Positions 1 through 39,024 of a DNA stretch of 40,392 nt are shown in pieces. Where the stretch lies: IMG/VR virus record IMGVR_UViG_2617271049_000009, positions 1 through 40,392 of that record, one strand, 5' to 3'. The notes under the pieces are model-generated. The model saw only the letters and a list, made by a program, of their open reading frames with translations. It did no database searches and was not told the DNA's origin. How positions within the stretch are numbered: position 1 is the stretch's first letter; each line of letters opens with the position of its first letter. A program made the translations under genes and the position numbers. Source of the DNA: a virus (Duplodnaviria; Heunggongvirae; Uroviricota; Caudoviricetes).

Positions 1-468
1 TTATATTTTAACCATTAAGTTATCGAGTACTGATGAAGCTATTCTTTTTATATATCGATAAAGGCCTCTATCTGTCGACTTGGAAAAAGTCAAATAAATC
101 TCCTTCTTTGACTGGGTATCCAGTTTTTTATAGCTTTCGAGAAGAACTTTAATGAACACCTCATCATTAACGATGTTTTTCAACATATCCCTAGATTCTT
201 TTTTTTCATCAGAAGTCATTTCCTTTAAAGATTCAATTGCTATTCTTAACTTTAATTCATCTTCATCTATCCTTTTAATTGTCGCTTCCAAATCCCCTAT
301 GCTTTTATTGATAGATTCAAGCTCACTAAAGCTCTTTGCCATTTCAGTTGCAAGCTCTTCATTAGCCTTAACTTTTTTACGAGTATGCATGATAGATGTA
401 GCTAAGCCTACAATTGCCGCTAAAGAAGACACTATCAACCCAGCATACATAAATATAATATCCTCCAT
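1..468 (-). CDS. hypothetical protein, N-terminal transmembrane helix followed by a long charged coiled-coil-like region (155 aa); second gene of an AT-rich two-gene operon
   Basis: Complete ORF with ATG at 468..466 and stop at 3..1; start overlaps the upstream stop as TAATG (translational coupling); hydrophobic residues ~5-27 then E/K-rich heptad-like sequence; very low GC versus the phage structural genes. Confidence 0.55.
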   Translation of the reverse strand: MEDIIFMYAGLIVSSLAAIVGLATSIMHTRKKVKANEELATEMAKSFSELESINKSIGDLEATIKRIDEDELKLRIAIESLKEMTSDEKKESRDMLKNIVNDEVFIKVLLESYKKLDTQSKKEIYLTFSKSTDRGLYRYIKRIASSVLDNLMVKI

Positions 469-905
469 TACATACCTCTCGTAAACTTAAAGGAGAAAAC
501 AGGCTCACATTCTACCACGTGTTTATTAAATCGTTCGAGAAGATGAAATATAAATATTACAGCCAGTAGTATCACCGTAACTACATAGTACCAGGTATAT
601 ATAATAACTTTTGGCTCACTAACTTTACCGTAAAGATAAGCGAGAATGAAACCACAAAAAATCCCTAAGCAAAAAATAGCTTTATCTCGAGAAGATACAC
701 CGATGGAAAAAGAGTATATTGATGCAGTAATTGTTAATGATTGTATTGAAGGGTGAGTTCCTGTGTTAATTGACTCAAAAAGTAATGGAAGCAACGGGAA
801 TATCATATAGAATATAATACTACCTGTAAAATCACTATATTCTTCACGCCAACCAATTGGCTTTCTGGGAAGTTTATTAGGAAACTCAGAGGTATCTCCA
901 CTCAT
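468..905 (-). CDS. hypothetical multi-pass membrane protein (145 aa from ATG at 905; the ORF extends to a GTG at 998, giving 176 aa)
   Basis: ORF with 3-4 hydrophobic segments; ATG at 905 preceded by GAGAG-like SD; stop overlaps start of the downstream gene; AT-rich. Confidence 0.5.
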   Translation of the reverse strand: MSGDTSEFPNKLPRKPIGWREEYSDFTGSIIFYMIFPLLPLLFESINTGTHPSIQSLTITASIYSFSIGVSSRDKAIFCLGIFCGFILAYLYGKVSEPKVIIYTWYYVVTVILLAVIFIFHLLERFNKHVVECEPVFSFKFTRGM

Positions 906-1196
906 TGTAATTTCTCTCTCAGTAATTTGTGCAACTTTTATCACTGTCAACCATGAGGTAGCAAGGATTTTGATGGCATATTTTAACAAAATATCCACTT
1001 AGAGGTATGAACTTCCGCTTCTGGCACACAGAGCTCTAGAGACAGTGGTGTAAAATCATGGAGAAGCGGTGGGATGAGGTGCTAATCTTTTCATGCAAAA
1101 AATACGTAAAATCAATAACGGCTGGACATCATTCAATACTCACACTATCGAAAGTCCACCATCCAGCCGCAGCAAGTTCTTGCATACGACGTGTCT

Positions 1197-1224
1197 GCGG
1201 GTTCAACTCCCGCCAGCTCCACCA
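1197..1224 (+). other. 28-nt fragment matching the 3' terminus of tmRNA (ssrA): T-arm, acceptor 3' strand and CCA; likely relic attachment-site copy
   Basis: Sequence GCGGGTTCAACTCCCGCCAGCTCCACCA read directly; matches the E. coli ssrA 3' end as I recall it; upstream sequence diverges, so not a complete tmRNA or tRNA. Confidence 0.5.
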
Positions 1225-1352
1225 ATCATGATTGGACGGTGCAGAACAACACCAATAAAAACAGGAAGTTAGCAGTCTCAGCAGGACACCGACCAGACGG
1301 TGAGGAGACAAAAAAGGATACGCAAAGGAGCCGCGGCTCCCAAGTGACATGA

Positions 1353-1383
1353 AAGCCCGCTGATGCGGGCTTTTTCGTTTTTA
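1353..1383 (+). terminator. Rho-independent terminator-like hairpin downstream of the ssrA-like fragment
   Basis: AGCCCGC-TGAT-GCGGGCT stem-loop followed by TTTTTCGTTTTT. Confidence 0.5.
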
Positions 1384-1768
1384 TTACCTGCGGCAACACG
1401 CTATCCCTCTTCGTGTTATGGGATGGAATTCCTTTTTACCTTCATTGGTACTTTCGGATACCAGATAACACCATTACCTATTTGACCAATGGCAGCGAAG
1501 CTGGTTTAAATAACCTCTCTAGCAAACAAGTACAACTAAGTTAAGTGGCCAAAAAAATCGCAATAAAACGTGCAATTACATTAACTAAGTAGGACGTTTT
1601 TAACACAAAAACATCGATTAAAAAACGCACTGTGACAAACACTGAAAAAACAAGCATCACACACATTTTTTATTCATGTTTATCAATATGTTAAAACATA
1701 ACCTTACTAATCTTGAATTCATCATCCGCTAATGTAGTTATATTATAAATAGCGCAGTGTGACACTCA

Positions 1769-3277
1769 ATGAAACCATCCATAGAACAACTTCTACATAT
1801 CTACGGGCCGATGTCCTCATCTGCCTTAAGAGAAAAACTGATAGCCAATGGCCTAACAGAAGTTAACGCCAGACAGCGAATCTCCCGCGTTGGAGGTGAT
1901 GTTCAACGTTTTACTCATTTTTCTTTGCCCAAAAATGAAGCATTTCTCTATCTGACAAAGGACTATAACTCTCGTCGATATTGGATTGCATTGCTTGAAA
2001 GTCATGTAAATGCAAGAACAGTCTATGCTCACACCTTTTTCGCTTTCCACCCTTATCAAGGGGCGATCCCGACATATCTTTTTAGCAAGGTTTCAGGGAG
2101 TCCGGACAAACTGAAGGGACACATTGCGTCAAGCCGTCTTGAAGCGCAATTGCTTAAAGGTTCAGTTCTGCGTAGGGAAGTTGATGTCGTTTTGGGGGAT
2201 TGTCTTGTTACTTACATAAATAATATTAACGGGGTAACGGATACCCAACATGTCCGAAACCAATTGCTGGTTGAAGATATTCTCATTAAAGGTGTAGCTG
2301 ACTGGATTAGACACAATGGCCTTGGCAGCTTTAATAAGGTCCAAGTCCGTAACTCTCAGAATATGCCTTCATTTAGCCATCACCATTGGGACATATGTGC
2401 TCCGTCATATATTATGCCTTTAGCAACAGTACAAAAAGGTGAAATGAGTAATGGCTTCATTGTTGCAGATGTCATATACAATGATTTAGATAGCAAAAGC
2501 ATCCAAACCTATCTCACGAAAGTACAGCGATGCAGAAATATGCGAAATACTCGCCCGTTTCTAGCTATGCTGATTGCAGAACGTTTTGATCCAGAAGCCT
2601 TTCGCCTTGCGAAACAAGCTGGTGTAATGGCTACAACAGTATCTAACCTACTTGGTCAAGACATTTCAGCACTACTGTCCAGTTTATTAAATACTCTTAA
2701 TCGTGCCGGTGCCATTGCGGCAGCAAACCCAGAAAAAATCAACGAACTATTTAAAGGACTTACGAGGATTGAAGGCGCCGCAATCAATATAAGAGGCGTA
2801 ATGTTTGAAATGTTAGTTGGTCACATCGTACTGAAAACCCAAAATGTCAGCACTGTTGACTTGAATAAACAAATCAGTACCGAGGCAGGTAAGGCTGAAA
2901 TAGATGTGATTGGTTTTAGAGGCGAAGCAGAAATTAAGTGCTACGAATGTAAAGGCTATGAAGTTAAGCGACTAATTTCAGTCGAAATGATCGAAAAGTG
3001 GCTCGAACGAGTTCAACGCATCAGAAAATTCTACAGTCAGATTCATGTGTACCGTGACCGAAAAATGACTTTTTCATTCTGGACCTCATCAGATTTTGAA
3101 CCTGAAGCACTTGAGCTGCTGCTTCATCAGAAGCAAAGAAATACAAAAATATCATTAGACTGGAAAAATGGACGTGACATTCTTTCCATTGTTAAGGAAG
3201 ACAATCTGAAATCAATTGCAGATGTTCTTCAGGAACATTATCTTCGACACCCACTGGCTCCTGATGCAGATATGTAA
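1769..3277 (+). CDS. hypothetical 502-aa protein; predicted N-terminal winged-helix-like region and C-terminal PD-(D/E)xK-like nuclease motif; candidate defence or restriction-type cargo gene
   Basis: Long uninterrupted ORF with ATG start, convergent with the invertase gene; C-terminal segment AEIDVIGFRGEAEIKCYECKGYE fits the hhhD-x(n)-(E/D)xK pattern; lower GC than phage core genes; sits where e14 carries mcrA. Confidence 0.7.
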   Translation: MKPSIEQLLHIYGPMSSSALREKLIANGLTEVNARQRISRVGGDVQRFTHFSLPKNEAFLYLTKDYNSRRYWIALLESHVNARTVYAHTFFAFHPYQGAIPTYLFSKVSGSPDKLKGHIASSRLEAQLLKGSVLRREVDVVLGDCLVTYINNINGVTDTQHVRNQLLVEDILIKGVADWIRHNGLGSFNKVQVRNSQNMPSFSHHHWDICAPSYIMPLATVQKGEMSNGFIVADVIYNDLDSKSIQTYLTKVQRCRNMRNTRPFLAMLIAERFDPEAFRLAKQAGVMATTVSNLLGQDISALLSSLLNTLNRAGAIAAANPEKINELFKGLTRIEGAAINIRGVMFEMLVGHIVLKTQNVSTVDLNKQISTEAGKAEIDVIGFRGEAEIKCYECKGYEVKRLISVEMIEKWLERVQRIRKFYSQIHVYRDRKMTFSFWTSSDFEPEALELLLHQKQRNTKISLDWKNGRDILSIVKEDNLKSIADVLQEHYLRHPLAPDADM

Positions 3278-3505
3278 TGTGGATAAGCCTAAGGTTTATT
3301 TAGCTGCCTTTGATGCTGTCTATTACCGAATTGTGATGGTCTGCCCAGTACAAAAATATCATTCTGGGCGAATTGATTTAGAGGGTTCACCGGCTCTAAG
3401 AGGCCGATATGTGGCTAGTGTCTGAGTTCCCAACAGCTCGACAGTTTGGGCTGTAAAGTTGTGCTGTCTGCCAGCATCAATCTTTACCGGTGGCCTGCAT
3501 CATGT

Positions 3506-4060
3506 CTAATCCCTGCCTACAGGAAATTTTCGGTATAGTGTTGACACTCCTACATCATAAATTAATGCTACGCGCTGACGCGTTTCTCCTGCAGCGATTA
3601 GTCTCCCTGCCTGCGCCCACTGCTCATCTGTTAGTTTTGGCTTACGTCCACCAATTCGTCCCTGTGCGCGAGCAGCTTCCAGTCCAGCTTTTGTTCGTTC
3701 AACAATCAGTTCACGCTCCATTTCAGCCAGGGCACCCATCACATGAAAGAAAAAGCGCCCCATTGGGGTACTAGTATCAATTGAATCCGTCAGACTACGA
3801 AAGTTGATGCCTCGTTCGCGCAACTCCTCAACCAGAATGACCAGATGCCGCATACTACGCCCCAGCCGATCCAGCTTCCAGACAACCAGAGTGTCACCTG
3901 CCGATAATGTCCTGAGCAGTTTTTTCAGTCCAGGCCTTTCGGACTTTGTACCGCTTATCTTGTCTTCAAAAATCAGCTCGCATCCTGCACAGTTCAGCGC
4001 ATTACGTTGTAGATCTGTGTTCTGGTCATTTGTTGACACACGTACATAGCCAATAAGCAT
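3506..4060 (-). CDS. pin: site-specific DNA invertase, serine recombinase of the Pin/Gin/Hin/Cin family (184 aa from MLIGYVRVSTNDQ)
   Basis: N-terminus MLIGYVRVSTNDQ with catalytic-serine context, resolvase-type domain and C-terminal HTH (YDVGVSTLYRKFP); adjacent to inverted repeats inside a tail-fibre gene. Confidence 0.9.
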   Translation of the reverse strand: MLIGYVRVSTNDQNTDLQRNALNCAGCELIFEDKISGTKSERPGLKKLLRTLSAGDTLVVWKLDRLGRSMRHLVILVEELRERGINFRSLTDSIDTSTPMGRFFFHVMGALAEMERELIVERTKAGLEAARAQGRIGGRKPKLTDEQWAQAGRLIAAGETRQRVALIYDVGVSTLYRKFPVGRD

Positions 4061-4086
4061 GGTAGATCTCCCTAGCAAAAGCAGGA

Positions 4087-4587
4087 ATGATGCCATTTGC
4101 TCGTTATTTCTGCATTTTCATAAACGTTGGTTTGGGAGAAGGTTCGGCATTACCCGTTGGTGTGCCTGTTCCGTGGCCTTCAGCCACTCCGCCAACAGGA
4201 TGGCTGAAATGCAATGGTGCGGCTTTTTCTGCTGAAGAATACCCGGAACTGGCAAAGGCTTACCCGACAAATAAATTGCCTGATTTACGCGGTGAGTTTA
4301 TTCGTGGCTGGGATGACGGTCGTTCAGTAGATACTGGTCGCAGCGTTATGTCTGCACAGAGCGCGCGTGTTGGTTATATTAAATTTGATATGGGAATTTA
4401 TGGTATTCCTGCAGGTACGGGCTCACTTATTTTGTCCAATGATATCTTAATTACGGGTCATGACAGTAATGGCTCAAGCCTATTGCTGAACAACTCTAAT
4501 GAGCGGGCAATTGGTGAAATGTATGTCGTTCCTGCCGATACTCGCCCACGGAATATCGCATTTAACTATATCGTGAGGGCTGCATAA
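4087..4587 (+). CDS. alternative tail-fibre C-terminal variable segment (166 aa), silent in the present orientation; e14 StfE-like
   Basis: ORF begins inside the inverted repeat with the same peptide (MPFARYFCIFINVGL) as the minus-strand copy; stop overlaps start of the downstream assembly gene (TAATG); same length as e14 StfE as I recall it. Confidence 0.65.
   Translation: MMPFARYFCIFINVGLGEGSALPVGVPVPWPSATPPTGWLKCNGAAFSAEEYPELAKAYPTNKLPDLRGEFIRGWDDGRSVDTGRSVMSAQSARVGYIKFDMGIYGIPAGTGSLILSNDILITGHDSNGSSLLLNNSNERAIGEMYVVPADTRPRNIAFNYIVRAA
4089..4145. repeat. left inverted repeat of the invertible tail-fibre segment (contains the putative crossover site near 4115..4140)
   Basis: ~57 bp identical except one mismatch to the reverse complement of 5959..6015; contains a TTTTCATAAACGTTGGTTTGGGAGAA element resembling hix/gix-type sites. 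Confidence 0.75.
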
Positions 4588-5199
4588 TGGATAACGCTGT
4601 ATTAAATAGCGAGTTTATTGCTACAAAGGCGGGAAATATTACCGTCTATAACTATGATGGCGAAACGCGGGAATATATTTCCACTTCAAATGAATATCTT
4701 GCCATTGGTGTCGGTATCCCTGCATATTCCTGTTTAGACGCTCCTGGTACATATAAGGCTGGTTATACAATTTGCCGTTCTGTGGATTTAAAATCATGGG
4801 AATATGTGTCAGACCATCGCGGTGAAATCGTCTATAACACCGAAACGGGAGACGCCAAAGAAATCACAGCTCCGGGTGATTATCCAGAAAATACAACCAC
4901 TATCGCCCCATTAACGCCATACGATAAATGGGATGGTGAGAAATGGGTGACCGATACTGAGGCACNNNNNNNNNNGCGCTGCAGTAGACGCGGCAGAAGC
5001 ACAGCGTCAGTCACTGATTGATACTGCAATGGCTTCCATTAGTCTGATTCAGCTGAAATTACAGGCCGGACGGAATTTGACGCAGTCAGAAACCAGCCGA
5101 CTTAACACGGTGTTGGATTACATTGACGCGGTGACGGCAACAGATACCAGCACCGCGCCGGATGTTATCTGGCCTGAACTGCCGGAGACTGCGCAATAA
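4587..5199 (+). CDS. tail fibre assembly protein (Tfa), interrupted by a 10-N gap at 4966..4975
   Basis: N-terminal part ends at the gap; after the gap a different frame gives the conserved Tfa C-terminus (...DYIDAVTATDTSTAPDVIWPELPETAQ) ending at TAA 5197..5199. Confidence 0.7.
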
Positions 5200-5334
5200 A
5201 CTCACCATCAATATATAAATCCCCCTGCTGTGTGTCAGCAGGGCATTCTTTCCATATTAATGATGGATGGAATCTTCCTTCAGGATTAATTTCCGTTATC
5301 TCTTCTACTTTATTTTCTTCAATTCTTGCCCACA
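5165..5334 (-). CDS. short tail-fibre-assembly-like ORF (56 aa) downstream of the active variable segment; possibly truncated
   Basis: ATG at 5334 with GAGGT SD, 9 nt after the stop of the upstream tail-fibre segment; lacks the conserved Tfa C-terminus and overlaps the 3' end of the plus-strand tfa. Confidence 0.35.
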
Positions 5335-5342
5335 TATGAACC

Positions 5343-6014
5343 TCACCAGTAAATATAAACTGCTCCATCTGCTCCGGCACCCGACTGACCCGTTGATGAA
5401 TTAGGACATAATCCAGCACCGCCACCTCCAGGCCCAACTGCTGATACCGCTTTTCCGTTAGCTGTATCTCTGAATGAACCTGCTCCTCCGGGGCCACCAC
5501 CAGAACCACCATTACCAGCTCCCGATGCGGCAGAAGCAATGGAACCTGGAGAACCTGGCCCAAGCGATGTATTAATTGTTCCCCCGACACCAACTGCGCC
5601 TAACCCTCCGGAAGGCTGGCCTCCGCTATAGCCTCCGGAAGCTGACATGTAAGTCCCGAAACTGCTCGAGCCACCATTTTTACCGTTTACAGAAATACCA
5701 GACACAGGTGCACCACCGGCACCAACCGTAATCGAAACACTGTTTATACCAGTTAAATCTACCAGCCCCTCAGCAACTCCGCCCCCACCACCTCCTCCGC
5801 CACATGTAACGGCTGAAGCGGTTGTTGAACCTATCCCTCCTGACGCACCGCCACCAATAACTTTGACGTAACATTTTCTTCCTTTGCGCAACTCTTCAGG
5901 AACAGTCCAGCTTGTTACTCCAGCCGTTGTGAAGGCAACCAGATTTCTGAACCCAAATGAACCTTCTCTCAAACCAACGTTTATGAAAATGCAGAAATAA
6001 CGAGCAAATGGCAT
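5343..6014 (-). CDS. tail-fibre C-terminal variable segment, glycine-rich (223 aa), currently joined to the constant part
   Basis: Only open frame through the right inverted repeat on the minus strand; Gly/Ser-rich low-complexity body typical of fibre tips; contiguous with the constant N-terminal part across the gap. Confidence 0.6.
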   Translation of the reverse strand: MPFARYFCIFINVGLREGSFGFRNLVAFTTAGVTSWTVPEELRKGRKCYVKVIGGGASGGIGSTTASAVTCGGGGGGGGVAEGLVDLTGINSVSITVGAGGAPVSGISVNGKNGGSSSFGTYMSASGGYSGGQPSGGLGAVGVGGTINTSLGPGSPGSIASAASGAGNGGSGGGPGGAGSFRDTANGKAVSAVGPGGGGAGLCPNSSTGQSGAGADGAVYIYW

Positions 6015-6015
6015 C
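5959..6015. repeat. right inverted repeat of the invertible tail-fibre segment, directly abutting an N gap
   Basis: Reverse complement matches 4089..4145; lies at the junction between the constant and variable parts of the minus-strand tail-fibre gene. Confidence 0.75.
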
Positions 6016-6025
6016 NNNNNNNNNN

Positions 6026-6301
6026 TGTTTTCACCGTGCCATCCGATTTGATATCGCCAAACGGATTCTTGCGGCTTAACAGCAGCGCACGAAGCGCGGT
6101 AAGCAGCTGGTCATGCCGCCCCTTCTCCAGGCTGGCACCGGATGCCTCCACAACGCTGCAAAGCTCCTCCTGCAACATGTCAAAGTAGTCATCATCCAGA
6201 TCGGTGGCAGGCGTGCCGGTCTGGGGGTTACCACGGGTAAAACCGTTCTTACCCGCGCCGAACTTATCCTTCTGCGCGGTTTTCGTGTCTATACGATGCA
6301 T
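6026..6301 (-). CDS. tail-fibre protein, constant N-terminal part (3' portion lost in N gap 6016..6025)
   Basis: ATG at 6301 four nt after the stop of the upstream baseplate gene; N-terminus [46 protein letters not shown] typical of fibre N-termini. Confidence 0.6.
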
Positions 6302-6304
6302 GGA

Positions 6305-6889
6305 TTACTCCGGATATTTAAAAATCACATAGGTATGCGACGGGCAGAGTTTGTTAAGAACACACTCGACAACGGTGTCCCCCCAGAAGCGCAGCGCGGA
6401 ATCACAGGGATCGCCACATGTCATCCAGGTGGTGTTGGTGGCGGCTGGCATGTTGACCTGCCAGTAATACCGCCATTCAGGCGCATTCACCGCGTCAGTA
6501 CAGGCCGATGAGCAGGTGAACGTGCTTTTGTCGTATCGCGTGATGTTGGCATCCGGTCTGCCCAGGGCAGCAAGCTGTGCAAGATAAAAATTCTCGTTGA
6601 TGCCGCCCGCCAGGTTAACCTTCGCATCCAGCCGTTGCTGACGCTGGCGAAGGGTCTGTGTCCCTGTAGGAATACATTCATCCGGCAGGCCGCACAGACG
6701 CTCCCAGCGATTTATCAGTTCGGTGGTGGTGCGCGGATCCAGCTCCCGCATCAGGGCATCCGCACGCTGATGAACGCGGGTTAATGACGGTGCCGCACCG
6801 GCAATCGCCGGATCGCTGGCTGACCACGCCGGACCGGGCGGCAACAGTGCTGACAACAGACGGATGTAATCATCGTTTGTCACGTCCAT
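6305..6889 (-). CDS. baseplate or tail protein (e14 YmfQ-like, 194 aa)
   Basis: Size and position next to the fibre gene; overlapping start/stop with the neighbouring baseplate gene. Confidence 0.6.
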
Positions 6890-7938
6890 GAAATCGCCCC
6901 CAGAACCGCCAGTTCATTTTTCGCAATGGTGATATTGTCCGCCGGTGCAAGCAACTGATGGCTGTATTCCCCGTTCGCACCGGAAATCGCTTCACTGATA
7001 CGTGACACCTTCAGTTCTCCCTGCGGATAACCATCACGCAGCAGGAACGAACGCAACTCCGCGGTGATGGCAGCCCGTATTTCCGGTGTGTCCGGCGTCA
7101 CACGGATATGAAAATCCACCGTATGTGCCACCGGCCTGAACACATACAAATCAGAGCCTGCCACCGGGGCCAGTGGCCCGATATGTTGTCTTGCCGCCGT
7201 TTCCGTTGATTCTTCCGGAATGGGATTAATCAGGTCACTGCTGGCAATCATCACACCGACAGTTCCCGTTCCCATCCAGTGACGGTATGTCCATGCGCGG
7301 GTAATGCCGGGTACTTCTTTAGCCCAGACGACATAGTCCCCGTCAGCCCCGCCCTGCGGCGTCCAGTAATACCGCTCAATGACGCGGGCGCGCCACGTTT
7401 CCAGATCTTCAGTATCAAATCCGCCTGTCAGAGTGTCAGCCACACCGGAAGACGGCAGACCATTCACCGGCGTGACCAGGATTAATGCCGTACCGTCGTC
7501 AGCGTTACCGACCGCGCCTGCACTTGAGCAGGCGATCGGCACGCGCAGGACACCACCGGAGCTGGTTGCATCGGCAGTTGCCGTGTACTGAACCAGGTCA
7601 TCGCGCTGAATCACGCTCCCGGCGGTCACTTTCAGGCCATCGCTGACACCTTCCCAGCGCATATACCCGCTGGCAGCCGTGGCCCCCTTGCGCGGACACC
7701 GTTTCATCGCAGCATGTCGCGCCAGCCAGGACTCATCGCACAGGTCAGGCAGCATGTTCATTGCCAGATAATCGATGTACCCGTAAACCGTATGCAGCGC
7801 CGCCGCATACACCTTTGCCCGCACGTCTTCATCCATGCGCCGGAGCGTGTCGCTGACGTCCAGCCTGGCGAATAAATCGTTACGGAGCATACTGATATTT
7901 TCTGCCAGCGTCGGGCGCTGAAATTCACTGTCCGCCAT
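6880..7938 (-). CDS. baseplate J-like protein (352 aa)
   Basis: Position and size in the baseplate cluster; ATG start; coupled overlaps with flanking genes. Confidence 0.65.
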
Positions 7939-8353
7939 GCGTTATCGCACTCCACAGATCATCAAAAGAAATCATTACCGGTCCGTCACGACGCCAGAGA
8001 GTGATACTGTTACCCAGTTCATTAATCCCGGTGCGGCGGATATCCAGATCAATACGGGACACCACGCCGTCATCAATCATCCATTGCAGGCATTCGCGGA
8101 TATACCCCCTTACCGTCAGCACCAGCTGATTGGTCAGTTTGCTGCGCTGAAGCAGCCACAGTCGGGAGCCGTAACGGTCATTCTGTACCGCAGGCCAGGT
8201 ATCCCCCCACCATCCCATCGGGACGTCGGCATTGTCATCAGGCTCCGCCCGCCGCCAGGTGAACAGGGAAATCACCACGGCGCGGGTCAGCGGATCCAGC
8301 GGTGCGCTGGCGCAGGTGCGTTTACCGTTCACCGTCAGCCACAGTTCCATCAT
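7925..8353 (-). CDS. baseplate protein (Mu gp46-like, 142 aa)
   Basis: Position between the V-like and J-like genes; overlapping start/stop. Confidence 0.55.
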   Translation of the reverse strand: MMELWLTVNGKRTCASAPLDPLTRAVVISLFTWRRAEPDDNADVPMGWWGDTWPAVQNDRYGSRLWLLQRSKLTNQLVLTVRGYIRECLQWMIDDGVVSRIDLDIRRTGINELGNSITLWRRDGPVMISFDDLWSAITHGGQ

Positions 8354-8898
8354 GCCTCCATCGCTTTATCAGGTTTGTCGGTGTTACTGCCCTGACCGTT
8401 CTCTCTGTGACGATGCCCGTTATAGGCAAGCCGCATCGCTGACATGGTGGTGCCGCCGGAGTCGCACAGGTCTTTCACCTGTCCGGTCACTTCCAGATCC
8501 ATTTCAAAACGTGCTTCAGGTGCATTGCGAAACGTGATCGTTTTCCCTGCACCGTCCACCACGATCCCCTCCCGGGTCAGCGTCACAGACTGCCCCTGAT
8601 CGTCATAGACAGCCACCTCACCCGTCTGCAGCCCTTTTAGGCGGTAGCGTCGGTCCGACACCGTAACAACCACCGCATGAGAACGGTCGCCATCCGGAAA
8701 CAACACCACCGCTTCCGCACCGCTGTTTGCCCTTGCGGTAAAACCGTAGGGTTCAAGATGTTCAACCCCAGCTTTGGGTTCACCGGCAATCAGGGACACA
8801 TCCACGGTCTGACATTTCGTGGCGGCACTGATGCTTTTCACCACGGCCCGCCCAATCAGGCCGAGAAGTTGTCGCTGCATGGCTTCAATCGTCCTCAT
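8350..8898 (-). CDS. baseplate assembly protein V-like spike (182 aa)
   Basis: Size and position in the baseplate cluster; ATG start. Confidence 0.6.
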   Translation of the reverse strand: MRTIEAMQRQLLGLIGRAVVKSISAATKCQTVDVSLIAGEPKAGVEHLEPYGFTARANSGAEAVVLFPDGDRSHAVVVTVSDRRYRLKGLQTGEVAVYDDQGQSVTLTREGIVVDGAGKTITFRNAPEARFEMDLEVTGQVKDLCDSGGTTMSAMRLAYNGHRHRENGQGSNTDKPDKAMEA

Positions 8899-9977
8899 CA
8901 GAACGGGTCCTCCTGTACTCTGGCTTTTTTCTTTTTCCGCGCGCCGGGGGCTTCGGGTTCAGGCAGATAAGCATCAGGCGGGCCGACACGGATTTCCGTC
9001 AGGGTGCCGTTCTGGTCCTGAGTAAACGTGACTTCCGAGACAAGCAGTTCGGTATTGTCGAAACCACAGACCGGATCGAAGACAATCACCCGCTGGTTGG
9101 GCTGCCACAGCATACCGTTACCCTGTCGCCAGCCCTGCACCACATAGGTGGTTTCATCCGTCCGCGCCGCCCGTTTTCGGGCTTCAAAGTCAGCACGCGC
9201 AATACAGCCTGCCCCCGTGGCCTGCCCTGTCTGCCTGATATACATCGGACGGTAACGGGCAATAAATGCGTCCTCTGTGCGGGCCCGCAGCGCGGTGGTG
9301 GTGGCCTCACCGAAATCATCGTCGTTTCCGGCACGCTGCCCCGCCACCTGGTAAACAGAAAACCGCTCCCGGATACTCTTCTCCGTATCACAGGAAAGGA
9401 TGTTTTCCCCAAGTACCAGCGCGGTATGTGCCCGCGTTGAGCCAATACCGCCAATCACCAGCCTGCCGTGCGGGTCGTCGTAAGCCAGCGCCTGCTGCTG
9501 ACCGAGTATTTTGTTGATTACCTCAATCACCGTTTCACCGTGATCAGGCTGAACATCAGGAATAACACCCGACGGCGCACCGCTGTTCACCACCTCAATG
9601 CCGAAAGGCGCAGCAAGCGCCTGCGCAATCTGCACCAGCGAGCGTCCGTTAAACTGTGTCGGTTCGGCTGCACAGTCAATCAGGTCAGCCGTCAGACTAC
9701 GTCCGGCAATACCGGTGCTGACCGAACGGGCATCGTAACGAACGGGAGTCGCCTCCACCCAGCCGGTGATCACCAGCTCATCACCAATCAGCACTTCCAC
9801 TTTTGAACCGTTTTTAATGCGCGGCTGAAGCGTGGTGATACCCTCATCTCCCGGCCACTGGCGAGTGATCTCCACACTGAAATCCCGCGCCAGCCGTTCA
9901 ATACCGGCACCGATGCGCACCGATGTCCAGCCATTCCACTCCCGGCCATCTACCCGTAGCGTGACATTGTCGTTCAT
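8898..9977 (-). CDS. tail or baseplate hub protein (Mu gpP / P2 gpD-like, 359 aa)
   Basis: Position between the DNA-circulation gene and the baseplate genes; basic C-terminal tail. Confidence 0.6.
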   Translation of the reverse strand: MNDNVTLRVDGREWNGWTSVRIGAGIERLARDFSVEITRQWPGDEGITTLQPRIKNGSKVEVLIGDELVITGWVEATPVRYDARSVSTGIAGRSLTADLIDCAAEPTQFNGRSLVQIAQALAAPFGIEVVNSGAPSGVIPDVQPDHGETVIEVINKILGQQQALAYDDPHGRLVIGGIGSTRAHTALVLGENILSCDTEKSIRERFSVYQVAGQRAGNDDDFGEATTTALRARTEDAFIARYRPMYIRQTGQATGAGCIARADFEARKRAARTDETTYVVQGWRQGNGMLWQPNQRVIVFDPVCGFDNTELLVSEVTFTQDQNGTLTEIRVGPPDAYLPEPEAPGARKKKKARVQEDPF

Positions 9978-11307
9978 TGCACTGGCACCTTCAGAGGGAT
10001 CACCGGCACAAAGCCGGGATGCGTAATGGCATTACGCCGGATAATGTCCGCGTCACGCGCCGCGTTATCAAACCAGGTCGCAGCCAGCACCAGCGCGGGT
10101 AAAACCTCATCCGGCGTGCGCTGAATGATCCGAGCAGACTGTTCAAGGCGCGTGTTGATATCCGCATTCAGATCTGCTTTCACCCGGCGCAGCGCCAGAA
10201 ACAGCGCATCACTGGTTGTACGGGACAACTCCTTATCAATTGCCGTATTCAGTGTGTCGCGAATGTCGGTCAGTTCTTCCCACGTTGGCAGGTCAACCGT
10301 GTTTTTCACCGCCGGTGCATTGTTCAGTGCCGGATGCGTGACAGAAGGCCAGCCGGTGCTCTGCGCGGGTGTTGTTGCCTGCCCCACTGCGGCATTCTGC
10401 ATCACCGCGGAAGTTGTGGGCGCAGGCAATCGTGTGACGGCATACGCCGCTTCGCTGATTGCGGTCGTACGAAGGGTGCTGGCAACCACGTTACGCTGCT
10501 GCGTCGCCGTGGCGGTGGTTTTACTGTCCGTTTTCCAGACGCCGCGCGGTTGCAGATCGCTGCCGAGGCTGACACCGGAAAGCGTTTTGATCATGGTGAC
10601 CAGGTCGCTGGCGTTACCATAAAGGCGTTTCCCGGTACGCCACATTTTCTGCACCTGCTCAACGAAATTTTTGCCTGACGATGGTGGCGGCAGAAGTACC
10701 GAGATATCCCCCTGCAACAGCCTGGCAGCATCCGATACGGCAGAATCCACCACTTTCATCGCATCAGAAACATACCCAAGCATTGTGCTGGCATTACCGA
10801 CGACGTCGTTCTGCACAAAATCTGCCACGCCATCGATACTGAAACCACTGAAGCTGTCACTGATGCAGTCATCCAGTGCAGAACAGGATGACATCAGCGT
10901 CTGCGCCGTCGCCGCANNNNNNNNNNAGTGGGGTAAGAGAGTTCTCCCGCTTCGACAAACTTCAGGTCAAAGCGGACAATACGCCCTTCACTCTTCGATG
11001 TGCTGACCCGAACTTCCCCATCAACACAGACTTTCAGCTCACCGTAAGTCGGATGGACAAGCGTGCCGGGACCGGGTTTATTCAGCGCGTCAATCAGGCG
11101 ATCGCGCTGGTCAAAGCAGTCATCTCCCACCACATAAGCTGTGATGGACGGGCGGAAAGTGATTTTCCCCAGGTCTTCGGTATAGGGTTTGTCGCGGTTC
11201 GGGTATTCGTGCGTTTCCACACGACGACCGGTTCCCGCACTTTCTTCTTCAACCTTAAACGGCACACCGCGAAATGACGCGTCCTGAAGTCTGTCTTTCC
11301 ACGTCAT
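9974..11307 (-). CDS. DNA circulation protein (Mu gpN-like), interrupted by a 10-N gap at 10917..10926
   Basis: N-terminal motif MTWKDRLQDASFRGVPFKV recalled as characteristic of the Mu N family; two ORF pieces in line across the gap; the ORF extends to 11349 but ATG at 11307 is the likely start. Confidence 0.6.
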
Positions 11308-37778: not shown

Positions 37779-37788
37779 NNNNNNNNNN

Positions 37789-38948: not shown

Positions 38949-39024
38949 TGGTGCCGATAATAGGAGTCGAACCTACGACCTTCGCATTACGAATGCGCTG
39001 CTCTACCAACTGAGCTATATCGGC
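38949..39024 (-). tRNA. thrW: tRNA-Thr (anticodon CGT), phage attachment site
   Basis: Reverse complement reads GCCGATATAGCTCAGTTGGTAGAGCAGCGCATTCGTAATGCGAAGGTCGTAGGTTCGACTCCTATTATCGGCACCA, a 76-nt cloverleaf with CGT anticodon and encoded CCA. Confidence 0.9.

Follow-up and report, generated by a model that had tools for sequence, protein, structure and literature searches.

Which of two tail fibre tips does a temperate phage present when both lie in a DNA segment that can be inverted, and what helps that tip to fold? This question is raised by the IMG/VR virus record IMGVR_UViG_2617271049_000009 (40,392 nt; the window), in which positions 3506 to 6301 hold a DNA invertase gene, two fibre tips facing each other and the constant start of a fibre gene. 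The original prediction recognized a Pin-type invertible tail-fibre switch, and this was supported by the intact invertase domains, by a half-site swap at a central TT and by the occurrence of both junction sets in closed genomes. We conclude that the locus is probably an e14-type P-segment host-range switch in an SfV/SfII-like phage, presented in the window as a scaffold of both orientations, in which a 56-residue protein would serve one of the tips as a one-domain chaperone. Such a switch is already known, and E. coli commonly carries it and its cassettes; the one-domain chaperone would be a modest, undescribed and unsurprising variant. The features of the switch are listed below in window coordinates (ORF, open reading frame).

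3506..4060, minus strand: pinE-type serine DNA invertase, 184 residues, intact (Resolvase E = 8.6e-52, HTH_7 E = 2.9e-14)
4087..4587, plus strand: collar-domain fibre tip (stfE-like), a 166-codon ORF (Collar PF07484 E = 1e-15; phrog_523 tail collar fibre E = 2e-65)
4114..4141, plus strand: pin-proximal recombination site ATTTTCATAAACG-TT-GGTTTGGGAGAAG, crossover dinucleotide at 4127-4128
4587..5199, plus strand: TfaE-type tail fibre assembly gene, both halves matching Caudo_TAP, interrupted by the gap at 4966-4975
5165..5335, minus strand: 56-codon ORF (small partner protein), GAGG 5 nt upstream of its ATG
5343..5976, minus strand: glycine-rich fibre tip, from crossover to stop (Gly_rich_2 PF21722, 44.6 bits against a cut-off of 24.3)
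5963..5990, minus strand: second recombination site, on contig 4976-6015, a recombinant form with a pin-type left half and a glycine-tip right half
5983..6015, minus strand: pin-proximal flank, duplicated at the contig end and inflating the repeat to 57 nt
6016..6025, no strand: scaffold gap; the closed genomes have GCTCTCGAAAACC between the constant part and the crossover
6026..6301, minus strand: constant fibre N-terminus (StfP head), 92 residues, the baseplate-docking part, ending ...ALENLGL

Four runs of exactly 10 N (4966-4975, 6016-6025, 10917-10926 and 37779-37788) divide the window into five contigs, and the window is therefore a scaffold; the contigs around the switch are 1-4965, 4976-6015 and 6026-10916. 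The possibility that these runs mask bases one for one was rejected, since the closed genomes carry 6 nt at the first gap. We compared the closed genomes MEI7BO1-21 (L001), CH4804 (L002) and ECCHD184 (L003), and the crossover was mapped by base-level comparison of the four junction types found in the window and these three genomes. MEI7BO1-21 and CH4804 have the gene order of the window, and in both the fibre head runs through ...GGTGAAAACA-GCTCTCGAAAACC-TT-GGTTTGAGAGAAGG... straight into the glycine-rich tip, forming one open frame of 307 residues. At the same place the window reads ...AAAACA, then 10 N, then GATGCCATTTGCTCGTTATTTCTGCATTTTCATAAACG-TT-GGTTTGAGAGAAGG, which is the sequence adjacent to pin. 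MEI7BO1-21 and CH4804 combine the pin-flank/collar-tip junction with the head/glycine-tip junction; ECCHD184, whose segment is annotated in the opposite orientation, combines pin-flank/glycine-tip with head/collar-tip, and its 250-residue collar fibre is annotated as a phage tail protein. A half-site swap at the central TT accounts exactly for the differences among the four junction types.

In the window, the left contig (ending at 4965) carries the pin-flank/collar-tip junction and the middle contig (4976-6015) the pin-flank/glycine-tip junction. One molecule with one pin gene cannot hold both; the scaffold therefore mixes orientations, and the active state is unreadable from it. It had been proposed that a single orientation was captured here, with the constant part joined to the 223-residue glycine-rich tip. 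Neither statement was supported: the two contigs carry junctions of opposite orientations, and as scaffolded the constant ORF (start 6301) and the 223-codon ORF (5343-6014, minus strand; start 6014) are out of frame, with an offset of 287 nt and a gap between them. When flank and gap were replaced by the 13 nt found in the closed genomes, the 307-residue fibre frame was open, and the head joined to the plus-strand tip, built from window DNA and 13 nt of the closed genomes, gave an open frame of 249 residues. The head can be reconstructed with either tip, which supports the claim that inversion swaps the fibre C-terminus.

The arms of the inverted repeat in the window (4089-4145 and 5959-6015) are 57 nt long, 98% complementary and 1813 nt apart, and their complementarity is far above chance. 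The predicted 57-bp repeats are accordingly present in the letters of the window, but the real repeat is shorter: by comparison with the closed genomes, the inner 24 nt (4122-4145 and 5959-5982) are the sole part repeated in real molecules, the closed genomes having 24-25 nt and K-12 e14 having 21 nt with 1797 nt between the arms. The window shows 57 nt because its middle contig recorded the opposite orientation to the left contig. The right arm's outer 33 nt (5983-6015), which in the closed genomes are present next to pin only and absent from the constant/tip junction, are a contig-end artefact. The site at 5963-5990 is identical to the pin-adjacent junction of ECCHD184 and differs from the constant/tip junction of MEI7BO1-21 and CH4804. 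Both sites, 4114-4141 and 5963-5990, show the family layout of 13-2-13 around a TT centre, and a search of the window for further recombination sites, as in a multi-cassette shufflon, found just these two.

The invertase itself shows the YVRVST (serine) and DRLGR motifs in its translation and shares 172 of 184 residues (93%) with K-12 PinE. At the nucleotide level, the identity between pin and K-12 pinE is 98% over positions 1-200 and 93-98% over the first 400 nt. Invertases of the Gin/Cin/Pin/Hin family have a Fis-bound recombinational enhancer within the 5' part of the invertase gene. Experimentally, PinE inverts the 1797-bp P segment (PMC12529663; PMC4272514), and PinE, PinQ and PinR can each invert the K-12 segment (PMC12529663).

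The simplest reading of the mixed junctions suggests that both orientations were present in the sequenced culture and that the switch was flipping there. Two points weigh against it: the mixed population is deduced from contig ends alone, and the constant-side contig ends 13 nt before the crossover and not at the fork, which a mixed population by itself leaves unexplained. The main alternative to a mixed culture is that there were two switch copies, in related prophages fixed in opposite orientations, and that the scaffolder misplaced a contig of the second copy. Places resembling this region do recur in E. coli genomes (median, 2 per genome; maximum, 11); the early end of the constant-side contig looks as if the fibre head were repeated elsewhere; and in strain 1190 the pin-flank/glycine-tip junction adjoins a truncated recombinase, as in a frozen state. 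Yet the 36-nt flank is identical on the first and second contigs, two copies that had diverged would not normally be merged into one tip contig, and clonal K-12 cultures are documented to contain the e14 segment in both orientations (PMC4272514). We therefore regard two copies as quite unlikely. That the 57-bp repeat is real in one molecule, with the pin flank duplicated between head and glycine tip and the fibre inactivated, is the literal content of the scaffold but scarcely credible, since the join lies exactly at a scaffold gap, is absent from all closed genomes examined and is the same as the junction normally present beside pin in the opposite orientation.

Given a culture of mixed orientation, the artefact has a use: where an inverted repeat ends at a scaffold gap, contigs of opposite orientation can inflate it, and such inflation is a free signal of flipping in culture. 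Among 5426 complete E. coli genomes, the head/glycine-tip junction was found in 28 and the pin-flank/glycine-tip junction in 19, with adjacency to pin confirmed in the two that were checked (ECCHD184 and strain 1190); the head/collar-tip junction was found in 558, a count that includes elements with another kind of second arm. The closest closed genome is MEI7BO1-21, with 99.6% identity over the switch and its left flank. In that genome (L001 6800-7210), everything between fibre-head codon 22 and a terminase fragment has been lost, and the switch persists without tail genes, much like e14.

We propose that PinE would pair two imperfect sites of about 26 bp (AAACG/C-TT-GGTTTG-G/A-GAGAAGG) and exchange strands at the central TT, which would invert about 1.8 kb. 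The fibre gene would begin outside the segment, with its 92 constant residues, and read through the site into the facing tip. One orientation would yield the 307-residue fibre with a TNF-like and glycine-rich tip, followed by the translationally coupled 56-residue protein; the other would yield the 249-residue collar-domain fibre, followed by a 202-residue TfaE chaperone. Each tip presumably recognizes a different receptor.

The switch region matches thousands of E. coli genomes, where its genes are annotated pinE, stfP, stfE, tfaE and ymfQ, the names used for the e14 P segment. As in e14, the order is ymfQ, fibre head, invertible segment and pin; the site core is AAACC/G-TT-GGTTTGGGAGAAGG, and the spacing is 1797 nt in e14 and 1809-1813 nt here. 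The fibre head differs from the K-12 StfP N-terminus by one residue, and the stfE/tfaE arms are homologous, the middle of the collar tip having diverged more. The variable part of the collar tip begins at the crossover, and the codons upstream of it form a silent leader. In place of the 10 N at 4966-4975 the closed genomes have AGCATA, which gives a TfaE of 202 residues with the C-terminal feature of Tfa/Caudo_TAP proteins (the ...AP.I.WP helical domain). The full-length plus-strand Tfa that had been predicted is therefore real once these bases are supplied, but in the window itself it is split by the N run. Unlike e14, in which the second arm consists of the K-12 StfP tip and the 137-residue TfaP, the second arm here is the glycine-rich tip with its 56-residue protein.

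The arrangement also resembles the G segment of phage Mu (Gin; S/U and S'/U'), in which a constant N-terminus is fused across the site to alternative tips, each with an assembly gene, and the tail and baseplate genes here are Mu-like. The fibre head matches residues 40-126 of Mu fibre S (5YVQ, E = 2e-6, by profile) and a chain of the Mu baseplate (9KI1_j, by fold). In contrast to Mu, the fibre is shorter (92 constant residues and 249 or 307 in total, compared with 504 for Mu S), and one arm has a different tip fold and a one-domain helper.

The glycine-rich tip is identical to that of strain MEI7BO1-21 at 205 of 205 residues. A 307-residue protein on record is 99% identical to the reconstructed fibre, and P2-type fibre heads bearing this tip also occur. 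A structural model of the 307-residue fibre (32 homologues) had a predicted local distance difference test (pLDDT) score above 90 over most of residues 110-307. The best PDB matches of the modelled tip in Foldseek were the tail tip of mycobacteriophage Bxb1 (9D93_Qa, E = 3e-8) and the fibre of cyanophage Pam3 (7YPX_A, E = 5e-8), followed by the glycine-rich domains of ALK/LTK. A single-sequence search of the PDB with the fibre matched Mu S only, at the N-terminus, and the Pam3 fibre needed a profile or a fold to be found. A literature search for Gly_rich_2/PF21722 found nothing. In the automatic RefSeq/NCBI annotation (L001 5940-6800 and L002 4765-5688), the 307-codon fibre is split into an "stfP pseudogene" and a "glycine-rich domain-containing protein", a split that hides a functional host-range arm.

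Directly after this tip lies the 56-codon ORF, which the original prediction had described as a very short Tfa-like frame lacking the conserved Tfa C-terminus. The frame is real and has no Caudo_TAP match: the protein lacks the ...AP.I.WP C-terminal domain of Tfa/Caudo_TAP (PF02413) and ends 8 residues past its N-domain. Its start lies 8 nt past the stop codon of the tip gene, and the GAGG before it overlaps that stop. A 67-residue version, called in the annotation of the closed genomes with the PGAP start and overlapping the tip gene, was rejected, since relatives begin at MWAR and the GAGG lies 5 nt before that ATG. Neither the 56- nor the 67-residue version had a match in Pfam, PHROG or NCBIfam scans. 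A word-indexed protein search yielded just six near-identical clusters, and the family surfaced by exhaustive HMMER search, which returned 272 relatives with a common N-terminal domain of about 50 residues (consensus MWARIENxxVxExTDxDPxGRFHPSLxWVECPxxVxxGxxYxDGxF). W2, A3, E12, P18, H23 and W28 are conserved. Among 147 short relatives, 26 had at most 75 residues and the remainder had a C-terminal extension; in 118 longer relatives, Phage_tail_APC was found in 17, DUF4376 in 15 and Caudo_TAP in 5, always after the N-domain. Stand-alone forms of 49-70 residues occur in Leminorella, Edwardsiella, Budvicia, Enterobacter, Citrobacter and a Pseudomonas phage.

The family profile matched one solved structure, Pam3 gp25 (7YPX_a residues 6-62, E = 7e-5). 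The model of the 56-residue protein (pLDDT 86) has five strands and no predicted helix, and its sole PDB fold match was the same chain, with a template modelling score of 0.70 and a root-mean-square deviation of 2.3 A over 50 columns. In Pam3 gp25, residues 1-55 form a 2+3-stranded fibre-binding sandwich and residues 64-162 a trimerizing helical bundle (PMC9608196). When the 56-residue protein was used as the query, 4-7 stretches were matched per large repeat protein (P0007, P0035, P0059, P0061 and P0081), for example in a 1681-residue protein with Listeria-Bacteroides (Flg_new) repeats; these multiple matches may reflect a common beta-hairpin motif or a low-complexity artefact.

The gene is linked to glycine-rich fibres. 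All seven homologues looked up lie after a glycine-rich fibre (24-36% Gly in the last 200 residues), one of them, in a Pseudomonas phage, with a gene between. The seven contexts are a Mu-like prophage (Leminorella), P2-like prophages (Edwardsiella, Budvicia and Enterobacter), Pseudomonas phage Amjad_SA and two metagenomic contigs; among the P2-like prophages, the small gene takes the place of the fibre assembly gene, between fibre and sheath. At 80 viral-contig loci found with a 10-sequence alignment, the partner protein was stand-alone in 21 and longer in 59. The ORF upstream had at least 20% Gly in 72 of 74 cases (median, 31%), compared with 5 of 505 control ORF stretches (median, 8%), the count of 72/74 overstating the number of independent cases as the viral loci include near-duplicates. 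The recurrence of the short form after glycine-rich fibres argues for a regular architecture and not a remnant. In an Enterobacter kobei P2-like prophage (L010 1335-3892), a Caudo_TAP gene and a Gp53-like_C tip on one strand converge with a 553-residue Gly_rich_2 fibre and its 56-residue partner on the opposite one. The recurrence of this convergent layout suggests another invertible segment using the glycine-rich module.

The original prediction had left open a decayed alternative arm or an unusual chaperone arrangement. The match to the Pam3 gp25 N-domain and the linkage to glycine-rich tips favour the second. The module resembles Pam3 gp24/gp25 (7YPX, 7YFW) in its short fibre, N-terminal helical docking part, TNF-like and glycine-rich tip and a helper gene directly downstream, whose beta-sandwich is homologous by sequence and fold. 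In contrast, gp25 has 162 residues, with a C-terminal helical bundle that trimerizes and caps the tip, whereas the protein here stops after the sandwich, and the Pam3 module lies outside any invertible segment. The 56-residue protein is also like the Tfa/Caudo_TAP proteins (lambda Tfa, TfaMu and TfaE) in its position directly after the tip, and its longer relatives carry a Tfa-type C-terminus, but it has neither the Tfa C-terminal domain nor a match to the family model.

Tentatively, we suggest that the 56-residue protein may be a minimal one-domain fibre chaperone (or a retained tip accessory), specific for TNF-like/glycine-rich tips and working without a helical trimerization domain. As the counterpart of the gp25 beta-sandwich, the "tentacle" that grips the side of the TNF-like as well as the glycine-rich domains, it would bind and stabilize the nascent glycine-rich tip without trimerizing. 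Trimerization would then be left to the fibre's own N-terminal helices; in Pam3 these are able to trimerize without the chaperone (PMC9608196). Besides the near-duplicates among the viral loci, several points speak against this proposal: the tip sequence profile matches the Pam3 fibre weakly (E = 0.03), the Foldseek E-value of the 56-residue model is just 0.16, the domain being small, and no experimental precedent for a chaperone without trimerization helices was found. Nor was a description of such a one-domain class found in the searchable literature.

One alternative is that the small protein stays in the fibre tip, for instance as an accessory adhesin, and is not a transient chaperone. Its counterpart in Pam3 is the domain responsible for the lateral tip contact, and it is without the domain by which gp25 caps the tip, both of which would fit a permanent part; on the other hand, Pam3 gp25 was undetected in virions (PMC9608196), and we consider this reading unlikely. 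Very unlikely, in our view, is that the ORF is a functionless, decayed Tfa remnant in an arm that is dying or needs no helper. Such decay would agree with the lack of a Pfam, PHROG or NCBIfam family match and with the PAVQAR end of the protein, which equals the K-12 TfaP end, is encoded opposite the tfaE 3' end and suggests a recombination scar. Against it, stand-alone forms with conserved positions recur, always after a glycine-rich fibre, the gene has its GAGG ribosome-binding site, and the predicted fold is confident; a decayed arm is hard to reconcile with a conserved stand-alone fibre-binding domain beside glycine-rich tips in Mu-like, P2-like and other phages. The shared last six residues, PAVQAR, are explained by the overlap with the tfaE 3' end: the small ORF runs towards tfaE and shares 35 nt with it (5165-5199), and this overlap marks the splice point of the glycine-rich cassette into an e14-type segment.

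In current models of Tfa action, the helical trimerization domain is the core of the mechanism. Glycine-rich tips are accompanied by a partner domain of their own, about 50 residues long and able to stand alone. Were this domain sufficient for folding, the trimerizing helix bundle of Tfa-type chaperones would be dispensable for the glycine-rich fibre class, and the domain would offer a very small module for engineering the host range of phages or tailocins.

Beyond the fibre arms, the window contains the following features.

5223..5243, no strand: 8-bp GC-rich hairpin at the segment centre, a terminator-like match on both strands
6305..6889, minus strand: YmfQ/Mu gp48-like baseplate protein (Phage_Mu_Gp48 E = 2e-26)
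38949-39024, near the right end: tRNA-Thr(CGT) gene

The hairpin lies 24 nt past the tfaE stop and within the 56-codon ORF, at the codons for CPADTQQG. The minus-strand baseplate genes near the fibre head are Mu gp48-, gp47-, gp46-, gp45- and gp44-like. The rest of the window is 97% identical to phage vB_EcoM-689R6 over 86% of its length, and the window is also a close relative of SfV, SfII and SfI. The switch is thus carried by an apparently complete SfV/SfII-like temperate myophage prophage and not by a cryptic remnant, and the tRNA-Thr(CGT) gene may mark the attachment site. In this, the locus differs from e14, which is a cryptic remnant, while the prophage here is apparently complete, SfV-like and near tRNA-Thr.

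It also differs from e14 in the cargo gene beside pin, which is mcrA there and encodes a 502-residue protein here. This low-GC ORF (1769-3277, plus strand; the minus-strand ORFs 468-998 and 1-468 are listed alongside) had no Pfam, PHROG or NCBIfam match, and a PADLOC scan gave a marginal LmuA match only (E = 0.007). The corresponding position is occupied by mcrA in K-12, by a LEM-3-like GIY-YIG protein in both CH4804 and ECCHD184, and by a DUF262 protein in strain 1190; it has the look of a variable site for cargo or defence genes.

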